This document shows positions 47,118 through 63,678 of a stretch of DNA of 64,000 nucleotides, piece after piece. This stretch comes from Bacteroidota bacterium (lineage in GTDB: Bacteria > Bacteroidota > Ignavibacteria > SZUA-365). The DNA is taken from NCBI GenBank assembly GCA_029907355.1, contig JARYLZ010000007.1, positions 6,275 through 70,274 on the forward strand, read 5' to 3'. A program made the translations under genes and the position numbers. Below the pieces are notes generated by a model. That model worked only from the letters and a program-made list of their open reading frames with translations, was not told the origin of the DNA and did not search any database. Every line of letters begins with the position of its first letter. Position 1 is the first letter of the stretch.

Positions 47118-47204
47118 GGAGAGATGCAGGAGTGGTTGATCTGGCACGCCTGGAGAGCGTGTGTACGGGAAACCGTACCGTGGGTTCGAATCCCACTCTC
47201 TCCG
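47118..47204 (+). tRNA. tRNA-Ser (anticodon GGA)
   Basis: Hand-folded. Acceptor GGAGAGA/TCTCTCC (7 bp), D-arm CAGG-AGTGGTTGA-TCTG, anticodon arm CACGC-CTGGAGA-GCGTG (GGA), a long variable arm TACGG-GAAA-CCGTA, T-arm GTGGG-TTCGAAT-CCCAC and discriminator G. The anticodon arm is near-identical to E. coli serX. Confidence 0.8.
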
Positions 47205-47443
47205 CAGGAAAGACAGGCCGATCCGGTAGTGGGTGGGGGGTACTTTTAACGGGGAACGTACGATTCCGCGAAGTGTGCATGATGATGCTTCGCCGAATAT
47301 GCGGACTGCGGGTTTGCCCTTGGCAGCTCGTTCCCTCTCTCCTTATCTTCGATTTGGCATAAACACGGCTTTTTTCTTACTAAACGGCAAGATATTCCGA
47401 TCGCCTTCGAACGGGCAGAACATTCGGAGAACCCTGTGGACCG

Positions 47444-49072: not shown

Positions 49073-51910
49073 TCATGCCCCGGCGTTCGGGTCCTCGATC
49101 CGGACCCTTTCCCTCAATCCGAGGTCGTCCAGTATCTGCTCGATGTCGTTCTTGAAATGTTGCACGCGACTGCTCTCCAGGGTGACCGAGAATTCGATAC
49201 CGATCCTCAGGTCCGATCCGTCCCGCAATTTCGGGAGGATTTTCGTCCCCAGACGGTTCCAGACCTCTGGAGGCACTTCGCCGGTGATGGTCAATCTCCG
49301 GGTGATGGGCGTCGCGCATACGCAGGGCTGTCGTTTGCATGTCGGGCATACGATCGGCTGGGGACACGTGCAAGGATACGTGCCGCATTTCGGGCACGTC
49401 TTCGGCAGCTGTTCGCATCGGCAGGGGATGGTCAGGCATTTCGGGCACACGGTTGCCGGTGGTTTCGCCGCGTCTTTCCATCTCTTCGCTTCGTCCTGCA
49501 AGAGCAGGAATACATCCGCCTCGAACATGATGTCCGCCGGATCGATGGGCTCCTCGAACAGCACACGATCGTACCCGCCACCCGGTTTTCGCCCGTAAGC
49601 GATCCCGAACTCTCCCCTGCCCACGAATTCGACGATTTTGTTTCGAAGGGTCGCGTCGGGGTCCAGAAGGCGCGTGAGCGAACCGTTCAGGAAGCTCTGG
49701 CGCAGTCCGGACAGCGGCCAAGCACCGGATTCACGGAACACAGGCGGCCAGTTCCGTTCAATGTATCCCGATCCGACGGACTCGCTCAAGAGGGCTTGGG
49801 ACTTCAATGCCGTTATGACCCTCCCACAGAGCGTCTCGCTCCCGCTCGAGTGACCCGCGCCGAGGTCGATGGATTTCAGCCCGTCCGCCTCCTTACTATC
49901 CGCGATGACCACGAAACGGTAACCGCCCCAGACCTCGTCTTTTGCGGCTTCCTCCGCATCCGTCACCTTCGATTGAAGTTCCGCTCGGTCGCTTCGGTCG
50001 AAATCCCCGCCGAGTGTTCCCTCGGCCACTTCCTTCGCGACGCGTTTCCATGCCAGCCACAACTCGACTTTGTCGCGGAGAACGCGGCCGGGTTTCTTGA
50101 GACACCACACGAGCGAGCCGGGATAGAGCCTTGGCGACTTGCCCCGCTGACTCGTCCACTCCGCGATCTGGCGGCGCAGATCGCCTGCTCCGGTCCATTC
50201 CGATTCCGGATCGACGATAACCAGCGTGAGACGCGGCGTATCCGGCACGGCTGTTCCATCTTCGGGGAAGGATACCACGGGTACAGTCGCCCCTCGTTCG
50301 AACTCCTTCCGGATGAGCATCCGCATCGCGGGTTTGATTTCGGATTCCTCGTCGAGCGACGCCCGCCGGTCGCTGACGACCTTCTTCAAGGTCGGCTGGT
50401 GGCTGATCTTGAACCCGTCCGAGCCCACCCGCCGAATGAAATACGATTTGTCTTCCAATGCGAAGGCGGCATTATCGATCGAGGTCGTGTCTACCGCCGG
50501 CTCACCCAGGGCAAAACGCAGCTCCGGCAGGTGGGCCACCTTGTCCACCTGCCCGCCGGAAGACTCGAAGAGAATCGTCGTCCCCACCCGGCGGTGGATG
50601 TTCTTGAGCACGCCCGTGGTGTCCGCGTCGAGCGCACGGGCATGCGAATGCGCGCCGGCGATGTCGGAATCGATGGCGGCCACGAGCCGGGATTCGCCGA
50701 GCTGGCCCAACACGACGCTGCGGAACTCCGGCACTTCCAGCGGGGCAGATCCCAGCGTGATGAGCGGCTCGCGCCGCGACTCGGTAAACCCGGTCCGGTA
50801 CGCCCAGGAAATCCACTGCGCGAGCATGGCCAGCGTCCCTCGCGTCTGCTGGTACTGCGAAAGCGCCTGCCATTTTCTCTGGAACACCGAAAGCGTCGCC
50901 GGGTGGAACGGGTAGCATGCCTCGAACCTGTTGCGCAGGAATTCCCTGGCTTTGGTCTCGGTCGTCGCGGTATCTACCGCCGTCCATTCGGGTGGGAGTT
51001 GCGCCCGCCGTTCGAAGCACCAGTCGGCGTAAGCCTTGGCGACGTTCTTCCGTACGCGATCGTTGCCCATGTCCTCGAACAGCCGGCGCCGCACGACCTC
51101 GCTGATCTCCGTCTCATCGTTGGCGATGAGGTCTTTCGCCACACGGCGTACGACCTTGGTGAGCCTTTCCTGCCACTGCATGTCCCAGTCGGTCATCTCG
51201 ACCTGGCTGCGGGGCAGGCTGATGACGGCGGCCCCGTGCGTAACACCCGTTGCTGCCACCGTCAAATTCTGAATGAAAGCGTGGAACTGCTCCGCCATGC
51301 CGCGATGGCGGTTCAGGAAATTCAGCACTTCGTCGAAAAGGAGGAGTACCTGGCCGCCCGCCGCCTGGAAAACGCGAGCCAAAGCCTCTGTACCCGGCGG
51401 CGTGGTCTTGGCCGCCGAGCCCAACTCACGCACCCCCGCCTCTCCGGCCAACTGCCGAGCGATATCGATCCACGGCGTCTCGCGCCCTTCCTGCGGGTCC
51501 CAGGCATTGCCGACGAAGACACCCACTCGCGCCTTGGGTACGGAGGAGAGCCCGGCCTCCTTCAGCAACTCGGGTACACCGTTGTATTCCGCCGCTTTGT
51601 CGCCGCACATGGCAAGGTGGTAGAGAGCCGTCAGCGTGTGCGTCTTTCCGCCGCCGAACTGGGTGATGAGCGTCATGACCGGTGCGGTGTTCTCCGTTTC
51701 ACCGGAGAGACGACGGAGCACCATACTCGTATATTCCCGCAAGGCACGAGTCCAGCACGTACGCTCGAAGAATTGTTTCGGGTCCCGGTAATCCTCGGGC
51801 GCGGTCCCGGCGATGACTTGTTCCAGGTGGATGGCGAACTCGTCCGGGTTGAACGAGCGGCCCTCGCGGACTTCCTTGCGCGGCGTGGAGACTTTGTACC
51901 AAGGATCCAT
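49073..51910 (-). CDS. DUF499-family ATPase (BrxC/PglY-like P-loop NTPase) with a Cys-rich CPxC-repeat C-terminal tail
   Basis: Walker A QFGGGKTHTLTALYHL. The N-terminal region is DUF499-like and the protein is long at about 945 aa. The start is placed at MDPWYKV (51910) because the 15 upstream codons of the track ORF are a translation of the polypurine repeat. The tail is TVCPKCLTIPCRCEQLPKTCPKCGTYPCTCPQPIVCPTCKRQPCVC. Confidence 0.8.
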   Translation of the reverse strand: MDPWYKVSTPRKEVREGRSFNPDEFAIHLEQVIAGTAPEDYRDPKQFFERTCWTRALREYTSMVLRRLSGETENTAPVMTLITQFGGGKTHTLTALYHLAMCGDKAAEYNGVPELLKEAGLSSVPKARVGVFVGNAWDPQEGRETPWIDIARQLAGEAGVRELGSAAKTTPPGTEALARVFQAAGGQVLLLFDEVLNFLNRHRGMAEQFHAFIQNLTVAATGVTHGAAVISLPRSQVEMTDWDMQWQERLTKVVRRVAKDLIANDETEISEVVRRRLFEDMGNDRVRKNVAKAYADWCFERRAQLPPEWTAVDTATTETKAREFLRNRFEACYPFHPATLSVFQRKWQALSQYQQTRGTLAMLAQWISWAYRTGFTESRREPLITLGSAPLEVPEFRSVVLGQLGESRLVAAIDSDIAGAHSHARALDADTTGVLKNIHRRVGTTILFESSGGQVDKVAHLPELRFALGEPAVDTTSIDNAAFALEDKSYFIRRVGSDGFKISHQPTLKKVVSDRRASLDEESEIKPAMRMLIRKEFERGATVPVVSFPEDGTAVPDTPRLTLVIVDPESEWTGAGDLRRQIAEWTSQRGKSPRLYPGSLVWCLKKPGRVLRDKVELWLAWKRVAKEVAEGTLGGDFDRSDRAELQSKVTDAEEAAKDEVWGGYRFVVIADSKEADGLKSIDLGAGHSSGSETLCGRVITALKSQALLSESVGSGYIERNWPPVFRESGAWPLSGLRQSFLNGSLTRLLDPDATLRNKIVEFVGRGEFGIAYGRKPGGGYDRVLFEEPIDPADIMFEADVFLLLQDEAKRWKDAAKPPATVCPKCLTIPCRCEQLPKTCPKCGTYPCTCPQPIVCPTCKRQPCVCATPITRRLTITGEVPPEVWNRLGTKILPKLRDGSDLRIGIEFSVTLESSRVQHFKNDIEQILDDLGLRERVRIEDPNAGA

Positions 51911-51925
51911 GATCAACCTACGGTT

Positions 51926-51960
51926 GGAAGGCAAAAGGAAAAAGGTAAAAGGCAAAAGGG
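51926..51960. repeat. Polypurine repeat copy a (GGAAGGCAAAAGGAAAAAGGTAAAAGGCAAAAGGG), in inverted orientation to copy b
   Basis: I read this copy directly. It lies between the DUF499 start and the four-helix-bundle stop. Its reverse complement nearly matches copy b at 52335-52382. Confidence 0.7.
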
Positions 51961-51962
51961 TG

Positions 51963-52334
51963 TCATTTTGACTTTCTCTTTTTCGCGTTTACGACGATCG
52001 ATCCGATGATCCGAGACAACTCGTTGGCTTCTCGATTCAGCGAGTCGATCTGATCGGCTTCGCCGAAGCCGGCGGCCCGTAACAATCGAAGCCAGTAGAT
52101 GGTTTCCCGCGCCTCTTTCAGGGCAATCGCATATTTACTGACGAAATCCGCCAAGCTTTGACCGGCCTGGGCTTCCTCGACATTCGAGCCGATGGAGGTT
52201 CCCGACCGAAGCAATTGCTTTCCCAATGCCCGTGAAACATCCGCATACGCTTCTAGCCGCCGACAAAGACGCACGATTTCCACCGCGAAAGCGAAGGTGC
52301 GCTCCTTGATGTCCCGCGGCTTATCATTGTTCAT
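51963..52334 (-). CDS. Four-helix-bundle protein (TIGR02436-like, the family known from 23S rRNA intervening sequences)
   Basis: 123 aa reading MNNDKPRDIKERTFAFAVEIVRLCRRL...ALGKQLLRSGTSIGSNVEEAQAGQS...YAIALKEARETIYWLRLL. This matches the conserved pattern of that family. It is bracketed by inverted polypurine repeats. Confidence 0.75.
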   Translation of the reverse strand: MNNDKPRDIKERTFAFAVEIVRLCRRLEAYADVSRALGKQLLRSGTSIGSNVEEAQAGQSLADFVSKYAIALKEARETIYWLRLLRAAGFGEADQIDSLNREANELSRIIGSIVVNAKKRKSK

Positions 52335-52382
52335 TTCCTTTTCCCTTTTGTTTTTTCCTTTTGCCTTTTTCCTTTTTCCTTA
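52335..52382. repeat. Polypyrimidine repeat copy b (TTTCCTTTTCCCTTTTGTTTTTTCCTTTTGCCTTTTTCCTTTTTCCTTA)
   Basis: It lies between the four-helix-bundle start codon and the DUF1156 stop codon. Copies c (about 52978-53015) and d (about 53094-53127) have the same orientation and sit inside the DUF1156 gene about 108 bp apart. Confidence 0.7.
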
Positions 52383-55352
52383 TCTCGGCACTCCCAGAAG
52401 CATCGCATCCAGCAGGCGCTTCTCTTCGCTCGCTTTCGGGTACAACGCCGAGAGGGCATTTGACAGCCGCAGGAAATCCGGGCCGCGTTCCATCTCGGCT
52501 TTTATGAGGGTCCGGAGTGCGTTGGTATGGCCCCCCGCTTGAAGGAGCATCGCGGCATGGACACGGTCGAGCGTCGTCGGACCATGTCCATCACGGCTAT
52601 TCAGAGAATGCAGAGATTCCTCATCCATAATGATCCTCTTTCCTCTGTGCCCTCTGTGTCTCCGTGGTGATTCTTCCATCTCGGGGAAGAGCACTAGCTG
52701 AAGGTTCTTCTTCGGGTCTTGAACGCTCCAGTCGGCCACAGCGTCCGCGCCATCCTCGCCGAAGAGCTGCCTGGCGCGTTCTGACACGGCCATGAGCCGC
52801 ACCACGCCTTTCTTCGTCTCGATGATGCGGCCCTCCCACTTGGGAAGGTCAATCCCCAGAGGCTGAGCGAAACGGCGCACCACGTCGAAGACAAGACTGA
52901 AACCTTTGGGCTTGCTTTTCGACTCGACGTCCTCGTCATCCTCCTCTTCCACCCAATCCCCGACCTCCTCATCGTTAATTCTTTTACCTTTTTCCTTTTC
53001 CCTTTTTCCTTCCCCATCTGTGACCTGCAGCGTCCACAGAAACAGTGCCGTCAGGCGTGCGTCCTCTTCCAACTCCTGCCCCGCCCCCTCCATTTTTCCT
53101 TTTACCTTTTTCCTTTTTCCTTCCCCCATCACCTGCTCCAGCGCCGTGCGGCCGACGACTTCCCATACTTTCTCCAGGAACTCCGCCAGTTTCACCTCGC
53201 GCCCCTCGGCGGTTTCGACTTTGCGGTAGCGGCTGAAGATTTCCAGCGCCGGGCCGATGCAGGCGAAGACGAGGTCTGCGCCGCGAATGCCCTCGCCCTG
53301 CAGCCGCTCCATCCAATCACCCACGCGCTTGGGAAGTTCTCGCAACACCTCGCCCCAGTCGCCCACCGGCGCATCCTCGGGCCGCGGGCGGCAGACGAGG
53401 TGGACGCTGGTTTCAAGTGCTGCGTAGCCCTGGCCGCGCATGCGCTGTCTGCGTTCGGTGGCGATGGGCCACGAACCGGTTGTGCGCCATCCCGCCTGTA
53501 CCAGCGCCGAGACGAGCGCTTCCCAGCGGTCGGTGTCCTTGTGGGCGAAAACAACCGAGGCCACTCCATCCTCGCGGATAATCCGCTTCATACGGCCAAA
53601 GGCCTCATACATGCGGCTCTCGTACCACTGACGGTCATGCACGCCGCTGTCCTTGACCGCACGGTTTTCTGTAAGTTCGCGGGCTTTTTCGGTCTCCAGG
53701 GCCGTGAAGGCCTGCGGCAGGCGATTCTTCAAGCCCAGCCGGAGCCAGCTGTAGAAAAAGTCTGAAAGGTGCGCGTAGGGAATCTGGTTGGCGTAGGGCG
53801 GGTCGGTGAAGACCAAGTCCACCGATTCTTCCGGCAGGACAGCGTCCAGCACGTTGGCCAGGAGCGGCGACGAGGGTTGGTAGCGGACGGTAGAGAGGTT
53901 CCGAAGCGCGCTCTGGACACTGCGGATGGAGTAGCCCAGGCCCTCGCAGTTCGGGCTCAAGGGATTGCCTTCCACAAAGTCGGCGCGCATGGGAACGCCG
54001 GAACCCTGTATGAAGATGGACGTTACCCCTTCCGAGAGCCAGACGCAAAGAGAGGTGTGGTACTGGCCATTGTCCGAGTAAGCCGCATAGAGGCAGGCGG
54101 CGAGACCGTCGAGCAGGTCTTTCTCCTTGGTCTTCTTGGCCGCTTCCTTGAGCGCGTCCTCGATGACCTCGTGCAGTACCCAGCGTGAGAAGCGTTGACG
54201 CGGGGCCAGGACTTCGACCCAAGTCTTGATTCCGTATGGACCAGGAGGAAATGCCCGCGTGTCGTTTTGCGGAAACCCGGCCATCTCAAACCTGATGTCC
54301 TTAGCTTTCACAAAAGCAGCAGAGAACGCTTTGAGGTCTTTAGGTGTCGGTGCGGAATATTCCTTTCCTCGGCTGTTTGTATTTCGCCACACGACCGCAA
54401 GAAGCATGGCATCATCCGCTCCGCCGCGCTTGTCGCGCAGTTGCGCCTGAACTCGTTCGCGCGGGGTAACCATGTGGCACTTCGGGCAGGTGGCGTTGTT
54501 CCCGGCAACGGTGCCGCGTTCGACCTCCTTGTCGCTGGAAGGCGTGAAGACCTCAATCTTCGGCTCCAACGATCCCTTGGGATATGTGATGCGCAGCGCT
54601 TTCTTGCGGCCCTTGGCCTGCGAAAGCCAGAGGTTACGCACGAGCGGAATGGTTGCCCCGCACCCGGCGGCCTCGCATTTGACGGTTCGCGCCCAGAGAT
54701 AGGCGAGCGGCTTCCGCCTGTACGCATCCGCCGGGTAGTACTCGCCCAGCCGCCTCTCTGCCTCTCTCAACACCCATTGTGACCATTCCTCGAACAGGTC
54801 GGCTAGTTGCGGTCCTTTGCGAGCACACCATTCGAGCGCGATCTTCAAGAGAAGCCACGCGACGGGATTGATGTCGGACGCAGTCACCTCGCAGCCGAGG
54901 CGCTGAGCTTCCAGCGGGATGGAGCCGCCGCCGGAGAACGGGTCCAGGACGTGCGGGACCGCACCGTGCGCGGCCTTCACCAGCTCGCGGGCCATGGAGA
55001 CGTAGCCTGCCACGCGGACGATGTCCCAGTTGGCGATGTCGGCCACGAAGGCCAGAAGCGCCTTTTGAAGGTCGGCGTCCTTCGGACCGACCTTCTTGTT
55101 CTGCTGGAGCGCCTTCCTCGCCGCCGCCTTGAACTCCGCCGGGCAGAGCGGGTCGCACGGGTCGGGGAGAAGCAGCGTCAGGAGAAGCGACCGGCAGGAG
55201 GCCAGCGGACGCCGCGCCCACCACGAGTGGAGAAGCGAGAGGTGGCCGCTGTCCACGCGGGTCTTGCGGTTGTTCTCCTCGACGCAGGCGTCGTTCACAC
55301 GCGACAGCGGAAAGTCCACCTCTGCCAGGCGTTTGCATTCTTTCGGGATCAT
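52380..55352 (-). CDS. DUF1156-family N6-adenine DNA methyltransferase (Zn-ribbon-containing)
   Basis: The N-terminus KRLAEVDFPLSRVN...SGHLSLLHSWWARRPLA is the DUF1156 signature. The SAM/catalytic region shows FSGGGSIPLEA and the DPPY motif (LVFTDPPYANQIPY). Cys pairs fit a Zn ribbon (CEAAGCG, CPKCH). A K/E/G-rich internal duplication is encoded by repeat copies c and d. Confidence 0.85.
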   Translation of the reverse strand: MIPKECKRLAEVDFPLSRVNDACVEENNRKTRVDSGHLSLLHSWWARRPLASCRSLLLTLLLPDPCDPLCPAEFKAAARKALQQNKKVGPKDADLQKALLAFVADIANWDIVRVAGYVSMARELVKAAHGAVPHVLDPFSGGGSIPLEAQRLGCEVTASDINPVAWLLLKIALEWCARKGPQLADLFEEWSQWVLREAERRLGEYYPADAYRRKPLAYLWARTVKCEAAGCGATIPLVRNLWLSQAKGRKKALRITYPKGSLEPKIEVFTPSSDKEVERGTVAGNNATCPKCHMVTPRERVQAQLRDKRGGADDAMLLAVVWRNTNSRGKEYSAPTPKDLKAFSAAFVKAKDIRFEMAGFPQNDTRAFPPGPYGIKTWVEVLAPRQRFSRWVLHEVIEDALKEAAKKTKEKDLLDGLAACLYAAYSDNGQYHTSLCVWLSEGVTSIFIQGSGVPMRADFVEGNPLSPNCEGLGYSIRSVQSALRNLSTVRYQPSSPLLANVLDAVLPEESVDLVFTDPPYANQIPYAHLSDFFYSWLRLGLKNRLPQAFTALETEKARELTENRAVKDSGVHDRQWYESRMYEAFGRMKRIIREDGVASVVFAHKDTDRWEALVSALVQAGWRTTGSWPIATERRQRMRGQGYAALETSVHLVCRPRPEDAPVGDWGEVLRELPKRVGDWMERLQGEGIRGADLVFACIGPALEIFSRYRKVETAEGREVKLAEFLEKVWEVVGRTALEQVMGEGKRKKVKGKMEGAGQELEEDARLTALFLWTLQVTDGEGKREKEKGKRINDEEVGDWVEEEDDEDVESKSKPKGFSLVFDVVRRFAQPLGIDLPKWEGRIIETKKGVVRLMAVSERARQLFGEDGADAVADWSVQDPKKNLQLVLFPEMEESPRRHRGHRGKRIIMDEESLHSLNSRDGHGPTTLDRVHAAMLLQAGGHTNALRTLIKAEMERGPDFLRLSNALSALYPKASEEKRLLDAMLLGVPR

Positions 55353-57322
55353 TGCCCACCTCCTCGCTGTGGTTTGAGGGCAATGATCTTTTCGACGATG
55401 CCCTTCAGGGTCACGCTTATCTTCCCATCAGCCGATGCCTTCTCGACGATACGCTGGAGAACGACGGGGTTCTTCAACGCATCCTTCTTCTTTTGGATGC
55501 CGAGTTGCGTTTGGGCTTCCGAAAGCAACCGGCCAAACAGGTCTTTGCCGATTTCCTCTTCAAGCGTAGTCTCGAGTTTGACCTTGAAACAGGCGTATTT
55601 GTCTTTCACACCGCATGGCCAGTCTTCTTCCGACTCGCCGACAAGCCGCAGCAGCTTGCGGTTGTCTTCAGGAATAGCACCATCTTCACCATTATCGCTG
55701 TCCCAGACGACGTAAACCGGGATGCCGAGTCGCCGGAAAATTACCAGAGGGCGATCCAAGTTGTTCTTTCCGATGCAGGGGATAACCGAGATGCCTTCGC
55801 TGTCGAAATTGTGCCCCATCGACGCGGCTACGCCGAGAATGGCGGCGCGGTCATCCTCGCCTTCGACCAGCACCGCAACATCGGCAAAGAATCCTTCGTT
55901 GAGCCACGGAGTCATCACAGCCTGAAGACGGGGGCGAAGCGTATCGGCGGTGTACTTGGCACCTTGTTTGCCTCCCGCAATCCATATTTCTTCGGCTACT
56001 GCGCCCAGTTCTGCCTTGATAGCCTTTGTCACCCTCGGTTTCCCGGCGACATCATCGAACTTCCGCAAGAGGCGGATTTGCTCGAAGCGGTCGAGTCCGA
56101 CAAAAAGCGGGGAGTGCGTAGAGTAGAGGACCTGCGTCCGCTTCGCCACGCCGGGGATCGTGCCTTGCGACAGTTTCAGAAGGACGGACGCCATGTGCCG
56201 CTGGCGGCTCGGGTGTTGGTAGAGTTCCGGCTCCTCGATGGCAAGAACCAGGCTGGGGAGCTGCGGCTCACCCTGTTCGGGAATCTCCGCCTCCGACGCA
56301 AAGCCCTCTTCGGTTGCGGACTCAACGCCCTTGGCCGCAACGAGATGCTGCAACATGGTCAGGATGAAGGCGCGCTGGAGACCGTGGCCCGTCCGCTGGA
56401 CCGAGGACTTGTATCCGTCTTCGTGAAGTTTGACCTCGGCCTTCGGCAAGGGAAAATCAATGTCAACGAGTTTGGCCCATTCCATCGAGACGTTCGCTTC
56501 GGGGGCATATTGTCGTAGGGTTTCGGATAGCTGCGTCTGAAGCCCGGAAAGCTCCGTGAGTCTTGCGGGGTCCATGATTTCGCGGTACTTCTTCTGCGTC
56601 TCGTCCTTCAGCGTCACGAATTCCTTCCGGTTGGTGAGTGCGCGCCGAACCACGAGGTCCATGATTTCCGTGACGCATGATCCCTTGCCTTCGGTGGCGT
56701 CATCCGACGCATCCCGGACGGCGGGGATGTGGATGAAGCGCGTGTGACGGCCGAGGTAGCCGTTACCGACTTCCGTGAATCCGAAAAATTGCCCATCGTC
56801 GCGCATGCGGGAACATGAACCTGGGTTGGCGGCCTCCCACTTTCTCAGTTCTTCCTCGACTTGATCCGCGTTCCGAACTGTAGGAAGTGAAGAGTAATTT
56901 GGCTTGCTCCTGATTTCGTTGTATTTGTTCCTGATCTCCGATTTTCCACCTGCGTTGCGAACTTCGGCAAATTCCGGATTCTGGAGTTTCATGCCATGGT
57001 AGGTTCCCGACTTCTTGGCCGAGAAAGAGAAGACTCTGGCAACGGTGAGGTCGTTGCCATCGAGATACGGCGCAAACAGGGCGTTCTCCTCGGTGCCGAG
57101 GTCGGTGAACGTCAAGGCGATTTCGATTTCCCTACTTGTGTCCTCCGCGTAGAAATCCTCAGCCGAGACAGCCGCCTTCGGGTCGTAGAACAACTCCATC
57201 GCCCGAAGGAAGGATGACTTGCCGGTGCCGTTGCGCCCGACAAGGACCGTCAGGTTGTCGCAATCAATCCGCTCGTCGAGAACCGAACGGAAGTTTTTAA
57301 CATGGATGGCCTTGACAATCAT
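55349..57322 (-). CDS. OLD-family nuclease: N-terminal ABC-type ATPase plus C-terminal Toprim domain
   Basis: Walker A VLVGRNGTGKSSFLRA, Walker B LAIEEPELYQHP and a Toprim block VLVEGEDDRAAILGVA...VIPCIGKNNL. Its stop overlaps the DUF1156 start by 4 nt. Confidence 0.8.
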   Translation of the reverse strand: MIVKAIHVKNFRSVLDERIDCDNLTVLVGRNGTGKSSFLRAMELFYDPKAAVSAEDFYAEDTSREIEIALTFTDLGTEENALFAPYLDGNDLTVARVFSFSAKKSGTYHGMKLQNPEFAEVRNAGGKSEIRNKYNEIRSKPNYSSLPTVRNADQVEEELRKWEAANPGSCSRMRDDGQFFGFTEVGNGYLGRHTRFIHIPAVRDASDDATEGKGSCVTEIMDLVVRRALTNRKEFVTLKDETQKKYREIMDPARLTELSGLQTQLSETLRQYAPEANVSMEWAKLVDIDFPLPKAEVKLHEDGYKSSVQRTGHGLQRAFILTMLQHLVAAKGVESATEEGFASEAEIPEQGEPQLPSLVLAIEEPELYQHPSRQRHMASVLLKLSQGTIPGVAKRTQVLYSTHSPLFVGLDRFEQIRLLRKFDDVAGKPRVTKAIKAELGAVAEEIWIAGGKQGAKYTADTLRPRLQAVMTPWLNEGFFADVAVLVEGEDDRAAILGVAASMGHNFDSEGISVIPCIGKNNLDRPLVIFRRLGIPVYVVWDSDNGEDGAIPEDNRKLLRLVGESEEDWPCGVKDKYACFKVKLETTLEEEIGKDLFGRLLSEAQTQLGIQKKKDALKNPVVLQRIVEKASADGKISVTLKGIVEKIIALKPQRGGGQ

Positions 57323-57327
57323 GACCG

Positions 57328-57540
57328 TTACCTCACCTGCCTGTTGGAATACCGCCCCTTGATGTGGTTGTGAAAATACGACCCCTTTGATGCGGCTCGC
57401 ATGAAGTCCTGATAAACGGTCTCTGGTACACCAGAGTACTGGTAAACGCCTCCGCTATTGAACTCCACCTCCAGCGTCCTCGACGCTGGGTCATAGCCCA
57501 CGGAACGGATATTGCTTGAGCGGACTGGTCTTCTGTTCAT
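57328..57540 (-). CDS. KTSC-domain protein
   Basis: 70 aa reading [57 protein letters not shown], which matches the KTSC domain pattern. Its start overlaps the RmuC stop by 4 nt. Confidence 0.7.
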
Positions 57541-58964
57541 GCTTGGTTGTCCTCCTTCACCTCCGGCGCGGAGATCGCCCGGGGCGTCGTCTCAACAGGT
57601 GATAGAGGCGGTATCTCGTTGCCGGTCGCGGCCCCCAAGTCCTTGAACTTGCGGGCGGCGGGCAGAACCCGGGCTTCCATCGAGCCGACGGCGCTGTTGT
57701 AGGCCGCGTTGGCCTTCTCCAGACCTTTGCCGATTGCAGCAAGGTGCTCAGCCATGGTTCTCATGCGTTCGTAGAGATCCTTGCCAAGGTTACTAATTTC
57801 CTGGGCATTCTTCGCGATTTGTTCTTGTCGCCATCCATAAGCCACGGCTCGCAGAAGCGCGATAAGCGTAGTGGGGGTCGCCAGAACTACGCGCTGCGCC
57901 AGACCGTCCTCAATGAGTGAGTGGTCGGCGTCCACCGCCGCGCCGAAGAACGACTCGCCGGGAATGAACATGACCACGAACTCGGGGGCCTTGGGAAACT
58001 GGCTCCAGTACGCCTTCGAGGCAAGGGTGTTCATGTGACTGCGAACTTGCGCTGCGTGCCGCGCCATGGCCGCATTGCGCACGTCTTCGGACTCGGCGGC
58101 GACGGCGTCAAGGTACGCCTCCAGCGAAACCTTCGCATCCACGACGATCTCCCGTTCGGCTGGCAGCCGTATGAGCAGGTCCGGACGCAGTCGCCCTTCC
58201 TCGGTGCCGACGGTCACCTGCTCGGCGAAATCGCAATGTTCGGACATCCCCGCCAATTCCACCACGCGACGCAGGGTCATCTCGCCCCAGCGGCCGCGTA
58301 CCTGCGGCTTGCGCAGGGCCGTGACGAGATTCGCGGTCTCTCTCTGCAACTGCTGCTGGCTCGTAGACAGGAGTCTCAAGTGCTCTGTCAGGCCGGAATA
58401 GGCTTCCTGGCGGTTTTTCTCAATCGTGCGGACGTATTCCTCGAACTTGGCAATGGACTCCGCCAGCGGCTTGACCATACCTTGAATGGCTTCCTGACGT
58501 TTGCCGAGATCGCCCCTGGCATCCGTCAGCACTTTGTCGAGCGTTTCCTGCGCCAGTTTCAGGAACGCGGTCGTGCTGGTGTTGAGCGTGTCTCCGGCAA
58601 GAGCCTTGAAGGTGTCCGTGAGCTTGGCCTTGGCCTCCTCCAAGAGCTTCTTCTCTTCCTGAAGCCGCTGGACGGTCTCCGCCAACTGAGTTTCGGCCTT
58701 CACCCTCGCGCTCGTCTCAGCAGCCAGTTGATCCCTGACCTTTGTGAAGTCCTCGGAGGCTTTCTGATTCTGCGAACGCAGTTCGGCAATAGTCCCTTCC
58801 AGCCCTGAGGCGCGCCCCTCGGCGGTATTCGCCCGGCGCTCGGATTCCTCCAACTTGGCGGTCATGAGCCTTGTGGCACGAGCGGTTGCAAGTAGCCAGG
58901 CCACAAGGCCGCCAATCAGCGCACCGGCCAAAACATACAATAGATAAATCATCGCAGCATTCAT
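57537..58964 (-). CDS. rmuC: DNA recombination protein RmuC
   Basis: From [19 protein letters not shown]: an N-terminal TM anchor, a long coiled-coil, and a C-terminal RmuC nuclease-like region ([18 protein letters not shown]...[11 protein letters not shown]...[15 protein letters not shown]). The track ORF extends 119 codons upstream through the YhcG gene and is ignored. Confidence 0.8.
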
Positions 58965-60169
58965 TCTCCGCCTCCTCCGCGTCTCTGCCGTACAATCATC
59001 CGCCGTTCCAGCGCCGCCCGCGTCCGTTCGATCTCGGCCGCCAATTCCTTCTCGTCCGGCAAGGCGGTTTTGTATTCCGCCGCCAGCACTTTGTTGGGGA
59101 GCCGGTCGAGGGCGTAGCGCACCACGGCCTCGTCCTTCTGGGCGCAGAGGATCAAGCCGACGGGCGGGTTCTCGCCGTCGCGGGTCCAGTGTTCCTGGGC
59201 ATAATTGAGATAGAGATGCATCTGGCCCGCGTCGGCATGGGTGAACTTGCCGATTTTGAGTTCGACAATGACCAGGCACTGCAACCGGCGATGGAAGAAG
59301 ACGAGGTCCACACGATACCACTCATCGCCGATGCGCAGGCGTTTCTGGCGGCCGGCAAAGCAGAAGTCGCCGCCGAGTTCCAGAAGGAAGGTCTCCAGGT
59401 GCCGGATCAGTGCTTCTTCGAGGTCGGACTCGGAGTACTCGTCCTTGAGGCCGAGGAACTCCAGCACATAGGGGTCCTTAATCTCCTCCTCGGGAGTGAT
59501 GCGGTCTTCCGGGAGGGCTTTCTGCCCTTTGGCGAGCATGGCGGCTTTATTGTGAGAGAGCGCGGTCCGTTCGTAGAATTGGGAGTTGATCTGCCGGTCG
59601 AGTTGCCGGACCGACCAGCCGCCCCGCAGGGCTTCCGTTTCGTAGAACCGGCGGGCGTTTTCGTTTTTGACCGCCAGCAGGCGGACGTACGCCGACCACG
59701 GGAGGGGGAAGTGAAAGGAGACGTTCTTCAGGAACTGTTCGATGGCGCCGTGCCCGGTTTCTCTTGATGGTGCCGAAAGAATCGGAAGGCTGGATTCTGC
59801 AGACGGCGTCTGCAGAATCTTAGGTTTGTCGGATTCCGCAGACGGTGTCTGCAGATTTGGCCATGCCAGGTAGAATGCCCTCATTTGCCACACATTGCGC
59901 ACGGAAAATCCTTTGCCATAGCGGGCGGACAAATCGGCCGCCAGACGCTCGATCAATTTCTCGCCGTACTCCGCCCGAACCCCTCCCTTCTGCTCGCTTT
60001 CGACGATCCGCCTGCCGATCAGCCAATAGGCAGCCGTCATGACGGAATTCACCGAGCGTGCCGCTGTTCTTCTCGCCGCAACGATAACCTCGGAAACATC
60101 GCCGAGAATCGCGCCATACGCCGAGTCGGCAACGACTGCAGGTGGAGTTCCGGGCGACTTGGGCCTCAC
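58961..60169 (-). CDS. YhcG/DUF1016-family nuclease with the PD-(D/E)xK restriction-endonuclease fold
   Basis: 402 aa. The N-terminal DUF1016-like helical region is followed by a C-terminal nuclease core ([45 protein letters not shown]). Its stop overlaps the rmuC start and its start overlaps the helicase stop, 4 nt each. Confidence 0.75.
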
Positions 60170-63100
60170 TTTTCTTCCTCCTCCGTGTTCGCTGTGCCTC
60201 TGCGGTGAACATCATATCCCGGCGAATCTTCCCGCACCTGCATGGGTCGCGTCATGGCGTCCACTTCCAGCCAATAGTGTTGGACCTTCTTGACCTCATG
60301 CCACGGGAAGCGCGCCGGATCGCGGATGGGCTCCTGGAGCGTGGGCTTGCCAGCGCAGTTCGTGACGATGTAGAGCCAGTAGCAGTCGCGCCGGTCCTCG
60401 GCGACGCGGCGCTCGTTGGGCGTGAGGAGGATCGTCCCGGTCGGATCGGCCAATCCTTTGACCTCGATGAGCCGCAGTTCGCCGGAATTGAGGTCGAGGC
60501 TGGTGATATCGTAGCCGAGGTTCTTCTCGTGGACGTCGTAAACCTGGCGTCCTTTGGAACGCTCGTACTCCATGACGACGCGCATGGCGGCGGCTTCCGT
60601 TTCGGCGCTGGGCTGGAGGTGGCGCACTTCGGGCAAACGGCGATCCGGGTGCGGCAGGACGAGGACACTGGCGATGCGCTCGACGGCCTGGAGCGTGAGC
60701 GACTGCTGCTGCCGGAGTTCCTTGCGGCGGCGGTCGCGCCGCGTCCGGAGTTCGTCGTGACGGTTCACGGCCTGGGCGAGTCGTCCTTCGGCCCCAGGCT
60801 CCTTCCGGTCGATGGCCTCCTGGGCCTTTCCGATTTCCTCGTCCGCCCGCTGGATGAGTTCCGTGAGCGACCATTCCACATGCTGCTCGATGCGTTGCAC
60901 TTCGGCGGTCCGTTCCTTGCGGACCTCTTCCAGGAACGGCCGGAAGGCGTTTTCCTGAAGCCAAGCGAGGGCTTCCGGCTCGAAGGCGACCGGCGGCAAA
61001 GGATCGGGGGAAGCAGCGGGGATGAGATCCGCCAGGATCGTTTCACCACAGAGACGCAGAGAGCACCGAGGACCATTCGTGTTTCCCTCTTTGTTCTCGC
61101 TGTCTCCGTGACGGGTCTTCAAATCCACAGCGAAGAGACGTTCACGGACCACCTGTCCCAACCCGTCCACCACGCGGGCGCGGTAGAAATCGATGCGTGA
61201 CGGCTCTTCGTGTTGGAGGGAGTAGAAGCAGGCACCTTTGCCGAGGGCCTCGGCGGCCATGGCGCACGTGTGCCGGCGGACGGCTTCGAAGAGGGGATGG
61301 CCGGGCGTGACCCACTCGAGATTGTTCTTTTCAGCCGTGTCGCGGTCTGTCGAGCAGGGGGGATAGCGTGGAGCCAGCGGGGGGAGCTTCCAATCCGCCG
61401 CCCGTTCGTACTCCTTCAGGAACGAGGGCGTTCGGCCGGGTTCGAAAGTGTGAGGGAGATGCGGAACGTCCTTGATATCGAGGTCTGCATAGGAGGCGGC
61501 CTCGCGGATGAAGCGGGCGACGGTTTCCGGCACGACGCGGCGTTCCTGGGCGCGAGCCCGTCGCTCGATGAGCATCTCCAGATTGAGTTTCTTGGACGCC
61601 AAGCCCTCCAAAGCGTTCCGGCAGATGTCACGGAATCGGCCCTCGTCGACGTTCTTGAGCAGGCGTTCCTCGAGGTCGGCATCGCCGAGTTTCCCGGCGT
61701 AGTAGTCCCGCAGGATGCGCTCCACGTGGGCCGCAGGCAGGATTTCGCCGACGACGTTGAAGACGGCGTCGTCGTCCAGCGCGTCGCGGATTTCCTGGAG
61801 TTTCTCCAGCAACCGCTGCAGCACACTGCCCTCGATGGTGTTCGTGGCCACGAAGTTGAAGATCAGACAGTCCTTCCGCTGGCCGTAGCGATGGATGCGG
61901 CCCATGCGCTGTTCGAGGCGGTTGGGATTCCAGGGGATGTCGTAGTTGAACAGGATGTTGCAAACCTGGAGGTTGATGCCTTCGCCCGCCGCCTCGGTGG
62001 CCACGAGAATCTGGATTGCGCCCTCGCGGAATTGCTGCTCCGAGTAGAGCCGCGTGCCCGGCTCGTCGCGGGAACCGGGTTTCATGCCGCCGTGGATGCA
62101 GCCGACGCGGAATCCCCAACCCTTCAGCTTCCCGACGAGGTAGTCGAGCGTGTCCTTGAATTCGGTGAAAATGAGCAGACGCTTGTCCGGCTGGTCGAAG
62201 AAGCCTTCTCCGTGGAGGAGGTCCTTGAGTTTCGACAACTTCGCTTCGCAGTCGCCGTTTTCCACGGCCTGAGCCAGGTCTGCCAGTCGGCGGAGTTCGG
62301 AAATCTCCTCCCGCACCTGGTCGGCGTTCCTGGCCAGCGTGATGGCTTCGAGCAATTCCTCCATGCGCTCGCGCTCGCTCTCTTCCATTTCCTCGATCTC
62401 TTCCGGGTCCGGCAGATCGGGCAGATCGAGGCTGACGAGTTCCTGAGCCTTCTTCAGACCTTCCTCCAGCCGGCGGGCGCGTTTCTCGAGGCTGTGACGC
62501 ATGGCATACGTGCTGGAAGCCAGCCTGCGTTGGTAGAGGGACATCAGGAAACCGACCGCACGGGCACGGGGATCGTCGCCCTGGGCGGCGGCCTTGGCGC
62601 TCTGACGCTTCACGAATCGCGTAACCTCCCGGTAGAGCTCGAATTCCGCGCCATCGAGTTGGAAATCCACGGTGTGGGGGATACGCTTCGTGAAGATCTT
62701 CTCGGTGACCCAGGTGCCATCCGGCCGCCGCTCCGGGAAGTAGACCATCGCTTCCTTGGTGCGGCGGAGATAGAACGGTGCGCGACGACGCTCCATCGCC
62801 TCGCGGATCGACCGCACGTCCGCATAGGCGTCCGGTTCGAGGAGTTGAAGGAACAGGGAGAAGTTCTCCGGGTCGCCCTTGTGCGGCGTCGCCGTGAGCA
62901 TCAAGATGTGGTCCGATGTATCCCTCAGGAGCTCGCCGAGGGCGTAGCGGGCGGTCTTGCGGGCCGGAGGCGTCCAGGACATGCGGTGCGCCTCGTCCAC
63001 GATGACGAGGTCCCAGTGGACCTGCCTCAAGCCGGGGAGGATCTCCGTCCGCTTTGCGAGGTCCAGCGACGTAATGACCTTATTCCGCTCCAGCCACTGG

Positions 63101-63678
63101 TTGACGCCGAACTGCTCGCGAATATCGCCGCCCTTGAGGATCACGAACGTCTCGTCGAACTTTTCCTTGAGTTCGCGCTGCCATTGGAAGGAGAGGTTGG
63201 CCGGACAGACGATGAGAATGCGCTCAGCGAGACCGCGCAGTTGAAGTTCCCGAATCAAGAGGCCGGCCATGATCGTCTTGCCGGCTCCGGCGTCATCGGC
63301 GAGAAGAAACCGGACCCGTGCAGCCTTGAGGAGGTAATCGTAGACGGCTTCGAGCTGGTGCGGTAAAGGGTCGACACGTGATATGGAAAGGCCGAAGTAC
63401 GGGTCGAACTCCCAGGCGATGCCGAGGGTGTATGCCTGGAGGCCCAAGCGCAAGAGACGCCCATCTCCGTCGTAACGGAAGCCGACGTCGAGAATGGTGA
63501 GGGCGGCAAAGTCCTGAGCGGTCAACGTCACCTTGCGGAATCGTTCGCTCTGCGTACCGACCAGACCAACGACCCAGGTTCCGTTTCCGTTATCGTGCAC
63601 CGTCTCCACGCGCATCGGCTCGTTGAAGATCGGGCCGGTGAGCACTTGGCCTTCGACCGGGAAATGCCGTTCACTCAT
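60166..63678 (-). CDS. SNF2-family DEAH-box helicase fused to a C-terminal DUF3883 (restriction-endonuclease-like) domain
   Basis: 1170 aa. Motif I LADDAGAGKT, motif II VIVDEAHRM, motif III MLTATPHKGD and motif VI QRMGRIHRYGQ are present. The C-terminal block GYDITSLDLNSGELRLIEVKGLADPTGTILLTPNERRVAEDRRDCYWLYIV is DUF3883-like. Confidence 0.85.
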   Translation of the reverse strand: MSERHFPVEGQVLTGPIFNEPMRVETVHDNGNGTWVVGLVGTQSERFRKVTLTAQDFAALTILDVGFRYDGDGRLLRLGLQAYTLGIAWEFDPYFGLSISRVDPLPHQLEAVYDYLLKAARVRFLLADDAGAGKTIMAGLLIRELQLRGLAERILIVCPANLSFQWQRELKEKFDETFVILKGGDIREQFGVNQWLERNKVITSLDLAKRTEILPGLRQVHWDLVIVDEAHRMSWTPPARKTARYALGELLRDTSDHILMLTATPHKGDPENFSLFLQLLEPDAYADVRSIREAMERRRAPFYLRRTKEAMVYFPERRPDGTWVTEKIFTKRIPHTVDFQLDGAEFELYREVTRFVKRQSAKAAAQGDDPRARAVGFLMSLYQRRLASSTYAMRHSLEKRARRLEEGLKKAQELVSLDLPDLPDPEEIEEMEESERERMEELLEAITLARNADQVREEISELRRLADLAQAVENGDCEAKLSKLKDLLHGEGFFDQPDKRLLIFTEFKDTLDYLVGKLKGWGFRVGCIHGGMKPGSRDEPGTRLYSEQQFREGAIQILVATEAAGEGINLQVCNILFNYDIPWNPNRLEQRMGRIHRYGQRKDCLIFNFVATNTIEGSVLQRLLEKLQEIRDALDDDAVFNVVGEILPAAHVERILRDYYAGKLGDADLEERLLKNVDEGRFRDICRNALEGLASKKLNLEMLIERRARAQERRVVPETVARFIREAASYADLDIKDVPHLPHTFEPGRTPSFLKEYERAADWKLPPLAPRYPPCSTDRDTAEKNNLEWVTPGHPLFEAVRRHTCAMAAEALGKGACFYSLQHEEPSRIDFYRARVVDGLGQVVRERLFAVDLKTRHGDSENKEGNTNGPRCSLRLCGETILADLIPAASPDPLPPVAFEPEALAWLQENAFRPFLEEVRKERTAEVQRIEQHVEWSLTELIQRADEEIGKAQEAIDRKEPGAEGRLAQAVNRHDELRTRRDRRRKELRQQQSLTLQAVERIASVLVLPHPDRRLPEVRHLQPSAETEAAAMRVVMEYERSKGRQVYDVHEKNLGYDITSLDLNSGELRLIEVKGLADPTGTILLTPNERRVAEDRRDCYWLYIVTNCAGKPTLQEPIRDPARFPWHEVKKVQHYWLEVDAMTRPMQVREDSPGYDVHRRGTANTEEEEK

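Follow-up and report, generated by a model that had tools for sequence, protein, structure and literature searches.

A KTSC-domain gene and an OLD-family nuclease gene in the variable slot of an Hma defence operon

What is the role of an OLD-family nuclease gene whose stop codon overlaps the start codon of a methyltransferase gene? The question is raised by a 64,000-nucleotide stretch from a Bacteroidota bacterium (assembly GCA_029907355.1, contig JARYLZ010000007.1, positions 6,275 to 70,274 of the forward strand), here called the window. A reading of its sequence made without database searches (the original prediction) saw an OLD-family ATPase/Toprim nuclease gene inserted between helicase-side genes and a DUF1156 methyltransferase gene, and proposed a hybrid module with OLD as the effector of a restriction-modification (R-M)-like system. 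We find that the OLD gene is one of many interchangeable defence genes in the variable slot of an Hma operon, and that its product is probably not the restriction enzyme of Hma. The reading that we prefer, and consider likely to be right, is a complete Hma system with a cargo slot between hmaA and hmaB, in which OLD and a small KTSC-domain gene form a self-contained, mobile second defence layer and not an Hma effector.

The minus strand from 49.1 to 63.7 kb holds a complete Hma system, described by Payne et al. 2021 (PMC8565338) and since renamed the Type-1 DUF499-centred BREX-related (BR) system (PMC12839542). Eight co-oriented genes form one tightly packed block (49073-63678) in the order hmaA-[DUF1016, RmuC, KTSC, OLD]-hmaB-[four-helix-bundle gene]-hmaC, and all parts that define Hma are present in one orientation: an SNF2 helicase with a PD-(D/E)xK nuclease domain, a DUF1156 N6-methyltransferase and a DUF499 ATPase. 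HmaA matches the Pfam families SNF2-rel_dom, Helicase_C and NOV_C (1.8e-22, residues 1028-1114), and the NOV_C nuclease motif is intact (D1057...E1072-V-K1074...E1089). It corresponds to D1084/E1104/K1106/E1121 of Halomonas HmaA; mutants in this motif lose both defence and nicking, and HmaA by itself is enough to protect E. coli against T4 (PMC11232893). As the restriction role belongs to this domain of HmaA, OLD is probably not the Hma effector.

The position of OLD within the operon, with the SNF2 helicase side before it and the DUF1156 methyltransferase gene after it, was correctly predicted; the genes on the helicase side can now be named more precisely as hmaA, rmuC and, between these two, a DUF1016/YhcG nuclease gene. 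The predicted 4-nt overlap is also there: the junction reads GGGCAATGATCCCG, in which the OLD stop TGA and the hmaB ATG share ATGA, and hmaB begins ATGATC. A promoter and terminator scan of 48.5-64 kb gave nothing beyond shuffled expectation and no outstanding minus-strand terminator inside the operon, as would be expected of a single transcription unit, though this is no proof of one.

Other Hma loci show how OLD stands to this operon. A search with an HmaB alignment gave at least 534 relatives in GTDB species representatives; the best 80 loci (given L numbers) were examined. This survey and the OLD survey below were seeded by short peptide patterns and covered 80 loci each, so frequencies are approximate; many metagenomic contigs are short, and open reading frames (ORFs) outside the window were called mechanically. 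Core proteins are 64-80% (HmaA) and 59-85% (HmaC) identical to those of the window, apart from the outlier L074 (HmaA 49%), and the order hmaA/hmaB/hmaC is unchanged in orthologous loci having all three genes on the contig. Pairwise HmaA identity is 62-100% (median 74%) across phyla, the bearers being Planctomycetota, Nitrospirota, Chloroflexota, Acidobacteriota, Pseudomonadota, Bacillota and one metagenome-assembled Halobacteria archaeon (L058). Such conservation across phyla points to one Hma lineage having spread rapidly and widely by horizontal transfer.

The original prediction had left as a check whether orthologous DUF499/DUF1156 loci carry OLD. Only 5 of the 80 do: four have homologous KTSC-OLD copies (L011, L049, L050 and a truncated copy in L026) and L046 has a different OLD-like ATPase. 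OLD is thus no obligatory Hma component, being absent from 75 loci, and minimal three-gene operons exist (for example, hmaA-hmaB-hmaC in L082). We had ourselves taken OLD as integral to an Hma subtype when the three first contexts were all hmaA-[RmuC]-KTSC-OLD-hmaB, from three phyla and with OLD 70-85% identical; that reading was dropped, the core being equally conserved everywhere and most loci lacking OLD.

What the slot holds instead is very diverse. The gap between hmaA and hmaB can be as short as 12 bp or as long as 7.9 kb, with no room for a cargo gene in nine loci (≤107 bp), and its ORFs form about 100 sequence clusters beyond the window's own cargo families. Those that could be annotated span more than 15 Pfam-defined cargo types; among representatives we found Schlafen-AlbA_2/HATPase_c_4, AAA_21, PHP with an SMC-like ATPase, UvrD, GmrSD, Fic, Mrr_cat, RES, AIPR, SIR2, patatin, PRTase-CE with AAA_15, HerA-like, DUF1828, another AAA_15 plus Toprim, DUF1016 and RmuC. 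UvrD cargo occurs in other Hma loci, never together with this OLD. This agrees with published counts, in which 66.5% of hma loci carry insertions at a "defence gene insertion hotspot" and Septu, PARIS and Ppl lie between Halomonas hmaA and hmaB (PMC11232893).

Cargo also changes between nearly identical cores. In a distance tree of HmaA the OLD-bearing loci are scattered, and their nearest neighbours often lack OLD: L132, with OLD, shares 94% HmaA identity with L024, which has Fic; L104, with OLD, shares 95% with L029, which has DUF1016; and L116 and L148, both with OLD, share 92-93% with L072, which has UvrD. The 4-nt overlap is likewise not particular to OLD. Of 55 cargo-bearing loci, 23 have exactly this overlap between the last cargo gene and hmaB, and the genes involved belong to 17 families; it recurs with unrelated cargo because hmaB itself starts (A/G)TGAT, extended to (A/G)TGAT(C/T) in 60 of 67 loci. 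The overlap is a generic feature of the slot, so there is nothing OLD-specific in the ATGA junction. A frequent, freely exchangeable insertion was what the original prediction had said would count against its hybrid module, and the diverse cargo and the swaps between near-identical cores largely amount to that. Since near-identical cores differ in cargo and the overlap at the hmaB start is generic, Hma loci probably exchange cargo through recombination in the highly conserved flanks, the 3′ part of hmaA and the 5′ part of hmaB.

Table 1. Genes and slots of the Hma operon in the window
Feature	Position	Strand	Description
hmaA	60166-63678	−	SNF2-family helicase with C-terminal NOV_C PD-(D/E)xK; PADLOC HmaA 8.4e-175
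DUF1016_N + YhcG_C PD-(D/E)xK nuclease gene	58961-60169	−	Pfam 7.2e-59 and 5.6e-42; PADLOC candidate PDC-S02 1.3e-139
rmuC	57537-58964	−	475 amino acids; Pfam RmuC 1.5e-106; NCBIfam RmuC 4.9e-54 (under cut-off)
KTSC-domain gene	57328-57540	−	70 amino acids; Pfam KTSC 8.7e-30
OLD-family nuclease gene	55349-57322	−	657 amino acids, ATG start; N-terminal ABC-type ATPase fused to C-terminal Toprim
hmaB	52380-55352	−	DUF1156 N6-adenine methyltransferase; PADLOC HmaB 1.1e-88; Pfam DUF1156 2.5e-14 plus methyltransferase motifs
Second variable slot, hmaB-hmaC	51928-52381	−	four-helix-bundle / 23S_rRNA_IVP gene at 51963-52334
hmaC	49073-51910	−	DUF499 AAA+ (ORC/Cdc6-like) ATPase; PADLOC HmaC 1.3e-96; Pfam DUF499 1.1e-12

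The OLD ORF is a real and, judged from its sequence, apparently functional OLD-family gene and no chance ORF, as its domains, its matches to structures and phage proteins and its intact motifs show. Pfam finds AAA_15 at residues 1-408 (E-value 4.8e-40) and OLD-like_TOPRIM at 478-543 (5.4e-18), so that an N-terminal ABC-type ATPase and a Toprim domain with its Glu and DxD share one polypeptide, as in the OLD family. The top PADLOC model is "Old" (4.6e-52, 175.6 bits), followed by AriA (5.1e-42, ATPase half only) and the GajA models (best 6e-32, at most 109 bits). The closest solved structure is that of the class 1 OLD of Thermus scotoductus (TsOLD, 6P74; 1.3e-24), which matches over both domains, whereas GajA structures match residues 6-76 only (5e-6). 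Against phage genomes, tblastn gave P2 Old (1e-11, residues 197-543, 21.6% identity over the aligned part) and gp28 of Burkholderia phage KS5 (1e-57, residues 1-588). Walker A (GRNGTGKSS, 29-37), the signature (RTGHGLQR, 310-317), Walker B (IEEPE, 362-366) and H403 are present in the ATPase, and the Toprim metal ligands E487 and D541-x-D543 align with the corresponding residues of TsOLD. Across 116 full-length homologues these motifs are invariant or nearly so, with E487 and D541/D543 invariant. The original prediction had made such motif alignment a test of its OLD-family assignment, and the motifs do align. An AlphaFold2 model, built from 30 homologues that are all at least 69% identical (too shallow an alignment), had a mean predicted local distance difference test score of 59.7 and a predicted template modelling score of 0.40, too poor for fold comparison.

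The place of this protein among the four OLD classes, another proposed check, is less simple. In sequence it is nearer to TsOLD and P2 Old than to classes 2-4. Class 1 genes stand alone, and here the gene sits in an eight-gene defence operon behind a conserved KTSC gene. The partners of the other classes are missing: among the eight operon genes Pfam and PADLOC found, as predicted, no UvrD-like helicase (class 2, Gabija) and no DUF4435 protein (class 4, PARIS, where ATPase and Toprim are not fused in one ORF as they are here), nor a reverse transcriptase (class 3, retrons), and neighbouring ORFs have no reverse transcriptase domain (the non-coding RNA was not searched for). The NCBIfam model of the retron Eco8 effector scores 39 bits on OLD against a cut-off of 250; NCBIfam holds no curated equivalog for OLD or KTSC, every match falling under its cut-off. 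The protein is thus class-1-like by sequence, yet outside the context definitions of classes 1-4.

The gene that sets this OLD apart is its small neighbour. A 215-bp "gap" upstream of OLD in the original prediction is not intergenic; it is filled by the 70-amino-acid KTSC gene, which is coupled to rmuC by an ATGA overlap, ends 5 nt ahead of the OLD ATG and contains a Shine-Dalgarno sequence (GGTGAGG) in its 3′ end. No PADLOC model matches KTSC, the four-helix-bundle gene or any of the small ORFs beside the operon. Structure matches of KTSC are PDB 7x8c (2.9e-22), a stand-alone KTSC protein, 4rgi (9.4e-20) and the C-terminus of the HerA-type protein 8wiv (1.9e-14). Aravind and colleagues describe KTSC as a DNA-binding domain coupled to HerA-like ATPase and endoDNase systems (PMC9503650); the HerA-DUF4297 paper has nothing informative on the KTSC-like C-terminus of HerA.

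Relatives of this OLD were examined for their surroundings. Those at 69-92% identity number more than 120 cluster representatives and are spread over Planctomycetota, Bacillota, Acidobacteriota, Desulfobacterota and other phyla, a patchy distribution at high identity that indicates horizontal transfer. The context set comprised 78 distinct OLD genes of at least 50% identity, from context look-ups and the 80 metagenomic loci of the OLD survey. At 70% identity or more, KTSC lies directly upstream in 29 of 31 cases, the hmaB start directly downstream in 27 of 32 (five of these being stubs of at most 80 amino acids) and RmuC upstream in 10 of 21; at 50-70% the figures are 14 of 40, 11 of 41 and 0 of 27. 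KTSC adjoins OLD inside and outside Hma, and its identity tracks that of OLD (r = 0.73, n = 43). Because KTSC precedes OLD in nearly all close relatives and also outside Hma, these sequence comparisons suggest that the two genes are a module.

Outside Hma, OLD relatives keep varied company; those of L152, L168, L095, L123, L156, L174, L147 and L091 are 53-71% identical to that of the window. Two are in type I R-M operons (HsdR...KTSC-OLD-HsdS in L152, HsdS-KTSC-OLD in L168) and two in SNF2-OLD-N6_N4_MTase operons, with a ResIII gene as well in L095 and no tested ResIII gene in L123. L156 has an Eco57I-type methyltransferase...OLD-GmrSD, L128 has Schlafen-KTSC-OLD-T5orf172, and OLD stands beside SbcC-like genes in L174 and L147, with an SbcD-like gene too in L174. 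The neighbours of a plasmid homologue (38% identical) carry the annotations DNA repair exonuclease and large AAA ATPase. The 70%-identical OLD of L091 (8001-9977) is found among housekeeping genes, with a DUF2130 gene upstream (6700-7986) and not KTSC or RmuC.

Intact OLD genes also adjoin remnants of hmaB. In five loci having at least 600 nt downstream, the hmaB match is N-terminal and covers at most 80 amino acids. The stubs have 57-62 codons (the DUF1156 N-terminal domain) in L092/L117, L120, L124 and L176, and L093 has a 74-amino-acid ORF; OLD ends at about 9971 in L092 and 7971 in L117, and unrelated DNA follows the stub, for example, a type I R-M system in L092. Stubs of such similar length in independent loci hint that recombination prefers one breakpoint or that [KTSC-OLD-hmaB 5′] moves as a cassette.

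On the preferred reading, KTSC-OLD would be co-transcribed with Hma, horizontally mobile, and one part of a cargo of four co-oriented, tightly packed genes (DUF1016, rmuC, KTSC and OLD). Class 1 OLD enzymes are 5′-3′ exonucleases or nickases whose ATPase and Toprim residues are needed in vivo (PMC10568477, PMC12392090). By analogy with P2 Old, TsOLD and Vc OLD, the protein of the window may act as an ATP-regulated two-metal Toprim DNA nickase or exonuclease, damaging either phage DNA or, abortively, that of the host. KTSC would be its targeting or regulatory partner, and is the best candidate for a DNA-targeting role because of its 7x8c and 8wiv matches and the DNA-binding domain described. 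Together the two would give a second, independent layer of immunity, and their anti-phage function is a prediction. OLD-ABC/Toprim nucleases have been described as serving BREX/BR systems as auxiliary or backup effectors, in at least 1242 taxa (PMC12839542).

Some observations weigh against this reading. OLD relatives of at least 70% identity are nearly always within Hma (34 of 36) and mostly beside hmaB (27 of 32), and so usual a place could mean functional dependence rather than residence. Between the window and L001/L011 the cargo is more alike (OLD 85%, RmuC 87%) than the core (HmaA 77%, HmaC 75%). The role given to KTSC is inferred from adjacency and a literature remark. In favour of the reading, the GC content at third codon positions is 0.66 for KTSC and 0.69 for OLD against 0.75-0.80 for hmaA/B/C; this and the higher cargo identity would fit a separate and more recent history of the cargo.

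Nuclease genes nested in type I R-M operons are known from PrrC/RloC-type effectors, which are anticodon nucleases, and effectors held in reserve against counter-defence are exemplified by PrrC in its pairing with EcoprrI, by PARIS, which senses Ocr, and by P2 Old, which senses the inhibition of RecBCD. KTSC-OLD might then be a guard built into its host system, silent while that system (Hma, or a type I or type III-like R-M system) is intact and unleashed when a phage anti-restriction protein or another perturbation disables it. We think this unlikely. OLD relatives do recur in methyltransferase-containing operons, namely Hma, type I systems (L152, L168, L092), SNF2-MTase(-ResIII) operons (L095, L123) and MTase/Eco57I loci (L156), but a passive passenger of a hotspot would equally appear embedded in R-M operons, and some relatives have no R-M genes nearby (L091, L174, L147, L128). 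The clade of at least 70% identity is nearly confined to Hma, and OLD is packed into the operon both transcriptionally and translationally; intact OLD genes nevertheless adjoin truncated hmaB. A "backup effector layer" has been proposed for OLD-ABC modules in BREX/BR systems (PMC12839542), but the sequence reveals neither a sensor domain nor a trigger. A bolder proposal makes KTSC-OLD an unclassified OLD class, an obligate pair of KTSC and class-1-like OLD that has specialised in methyltransferase-containing restriction-like operons (Hma, type I, SNF2-MTase-ResIII), guards them and fires upon phage counter-defence; we regard it as a tentative possibility, with the odds against it.

The original hybrid, in which OLD would be the primary restriction endonuclease of an Hma/OLD R-M module and HmaB methylation would shield self DNA, is very improbable. 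It drew on the gene lying directly upstream of the methyltransferase gene with a 4-nt overlap and on intact nuclease and ATPase motifs. HmaA, however, keeps its own experimentally validated nuclease motif, 75 of 80 close Hma loci (among them the minimal operon L082) do without this OLD, the overlap occurs with 17 cargo families, cargo is exchanged between near-identical cores, and OLD is found outside Hma and without hmaB. Least credible of all is that RmuC, KTSC and OLD are a DNA recombination or repair module merely located in the operon. RmuC is annotated as a DNA recombination protein and precedes KTSC-OLD in 10 of 21 close relatives, and Cran1, an OLD-family ATPase of archaea, is reported to act in the cell cycle (PMC12796447). 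RmuC is absent, however, from all 27 more distant relatives with enough upstream sequence, the slot is otherwise filled by defence genes, RmuC-like domains are defence-associated (PADLOC RTasRmuC, 3.9e-65), and the patchy multi-phylum distribution at 69-92% identity points to horizontal transfer.

The OLD protein and its locus can be compared with several known systems. The protein resembles class 1 OLD (P2 Old, TsOLD, Vc OLD) in keeping the catalytic motifs and in having no UvrD, reverse transcriptase or DUF4435 partner; it differs in that class 1 genes stand alone, away from defence genes (PMC10568477), whereas this one has a KTSC partner in a defence operon, and TsOLD is shorter (528 against 657 amino acids). 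The whole locus resembles published Hma/Type-1 BR systems in its three core genes and their order, in NOV_C in HmaA, in foreign defence genes between hmaA and hmaB and in OLD-ABC/Toprim proteins as reported auxiliary effectors, but the published texts that were searched mention neither the DUF1016-RmuC-KTSC-OLD cargo set nor the KTSC-OLD pairing (PMC8565338, PMC11232893, PMC12839542). Gabija shares an OLD-family ATPase-Toprim nuclease, GajA, whose hidden Markov models match the window OLD; the "Old" model is far better, and there is no GajB/UvrD neighbour. For PARIS the likeness is in the AriA match to the ATPase half, in its occurrence as Hma cargo (PMC11232893) and in its sensing of anti-restriction proteins, the analogy behind the guard proposal; its Toprim protein AriB (DUF4435) is separate, whereas the Toprim of the window is fused and AriB is absent. 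With PrrC/RloC effectors the OLD relatives of L152 and L168 share a place in type I R-M operons, but fold and target are different, OLD enzymes being DNA nucleases.

Of the other cargo genes in the window, the DUF1016 gene has a GTG start that overlaps the hmaA stop (GTGA); its homologues were found by tblastn in 13 of the 80 Hma loci, in 10 of them within the slot of a locus with both flanks. The true start of rmuC is the ATG at 58964, in an ATGA overlap with the DUF1016 stop; a mechanically called 594-amino-acid ORF reaching 59321 overlaps DUF1016 by 360 nt and is an artefact. The hmaB-hmaC junction is a second variable slot, since other Hma loci hold different genes there (PDDEXK_3 in L001, DUF8426 in L005). 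Its gene in the window matches Pfam 23S_rRNA_IVP (6.8e-22) and TIGR02436 (2.4e-27) and is bracketed by purine-rich 30-nt inverted repeats (51928-51957 and 52352-52381) that are 90% complementary. These repeats, AAGGCAAAAGGAAAAAGG... and ...CCTTTTTCCTTTTTCCTT, give it the appearance of a small inserted cassette. For hmaC, the ATG at 51910 (MDPWYK...) is probably the start rather than the TTG at 51955: most homologues align only from residues 14-16 of the long ORF onwards, and its 15 extra codons lie inside an inverted-repeat arm.

Beyond the operon, none of the flanking ORFs tested within 44-64 kb matched a Pfam or PADLOC model. A tRNA-Ser(GGA) gene is found at 47118-47205 on the plus strand, 1.9 kb past the end of hmaC, with small ORFs of no family match in between. 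It may mark the place where a genomic island with Hma integrated; the other end of the island would fall past 64000. L005 has two integrase genes upstream of hmaA.

The hma insertion hotspot (PMC11232893) and the association of OLD with BREX/BR systems (PMC12839542) are already published. No prior description of the KTSC-OLD pair or of the RmuC-KTSC-OLD set was found in the OLD papers searched, none of which has the word KTSC, in the text and supplements of PMC12839542 or in the main text of PMC11232893, and the pairing appears to be new. The locus matters modestly, as a clear example of defence genes nesting within another defence operon, where homologous recombination can shuffle the cargo of a variable slot between very conserved flanks. 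It also sets right an inviting misreading, the 4-nt overlap with the methyltransferase gene implying no functional hybrid. Should KTSC be required for OLD activity, or regulate it, the pair would be a fifth genomic class of the OLD family, and KTSC would offer a way to learn how class-1-like OLD nucleases are directed to their targets or held in check, an open question in the review of that family (PMC10568477). KTSC-OLD is thus a modest lead towards a new OLD variant.

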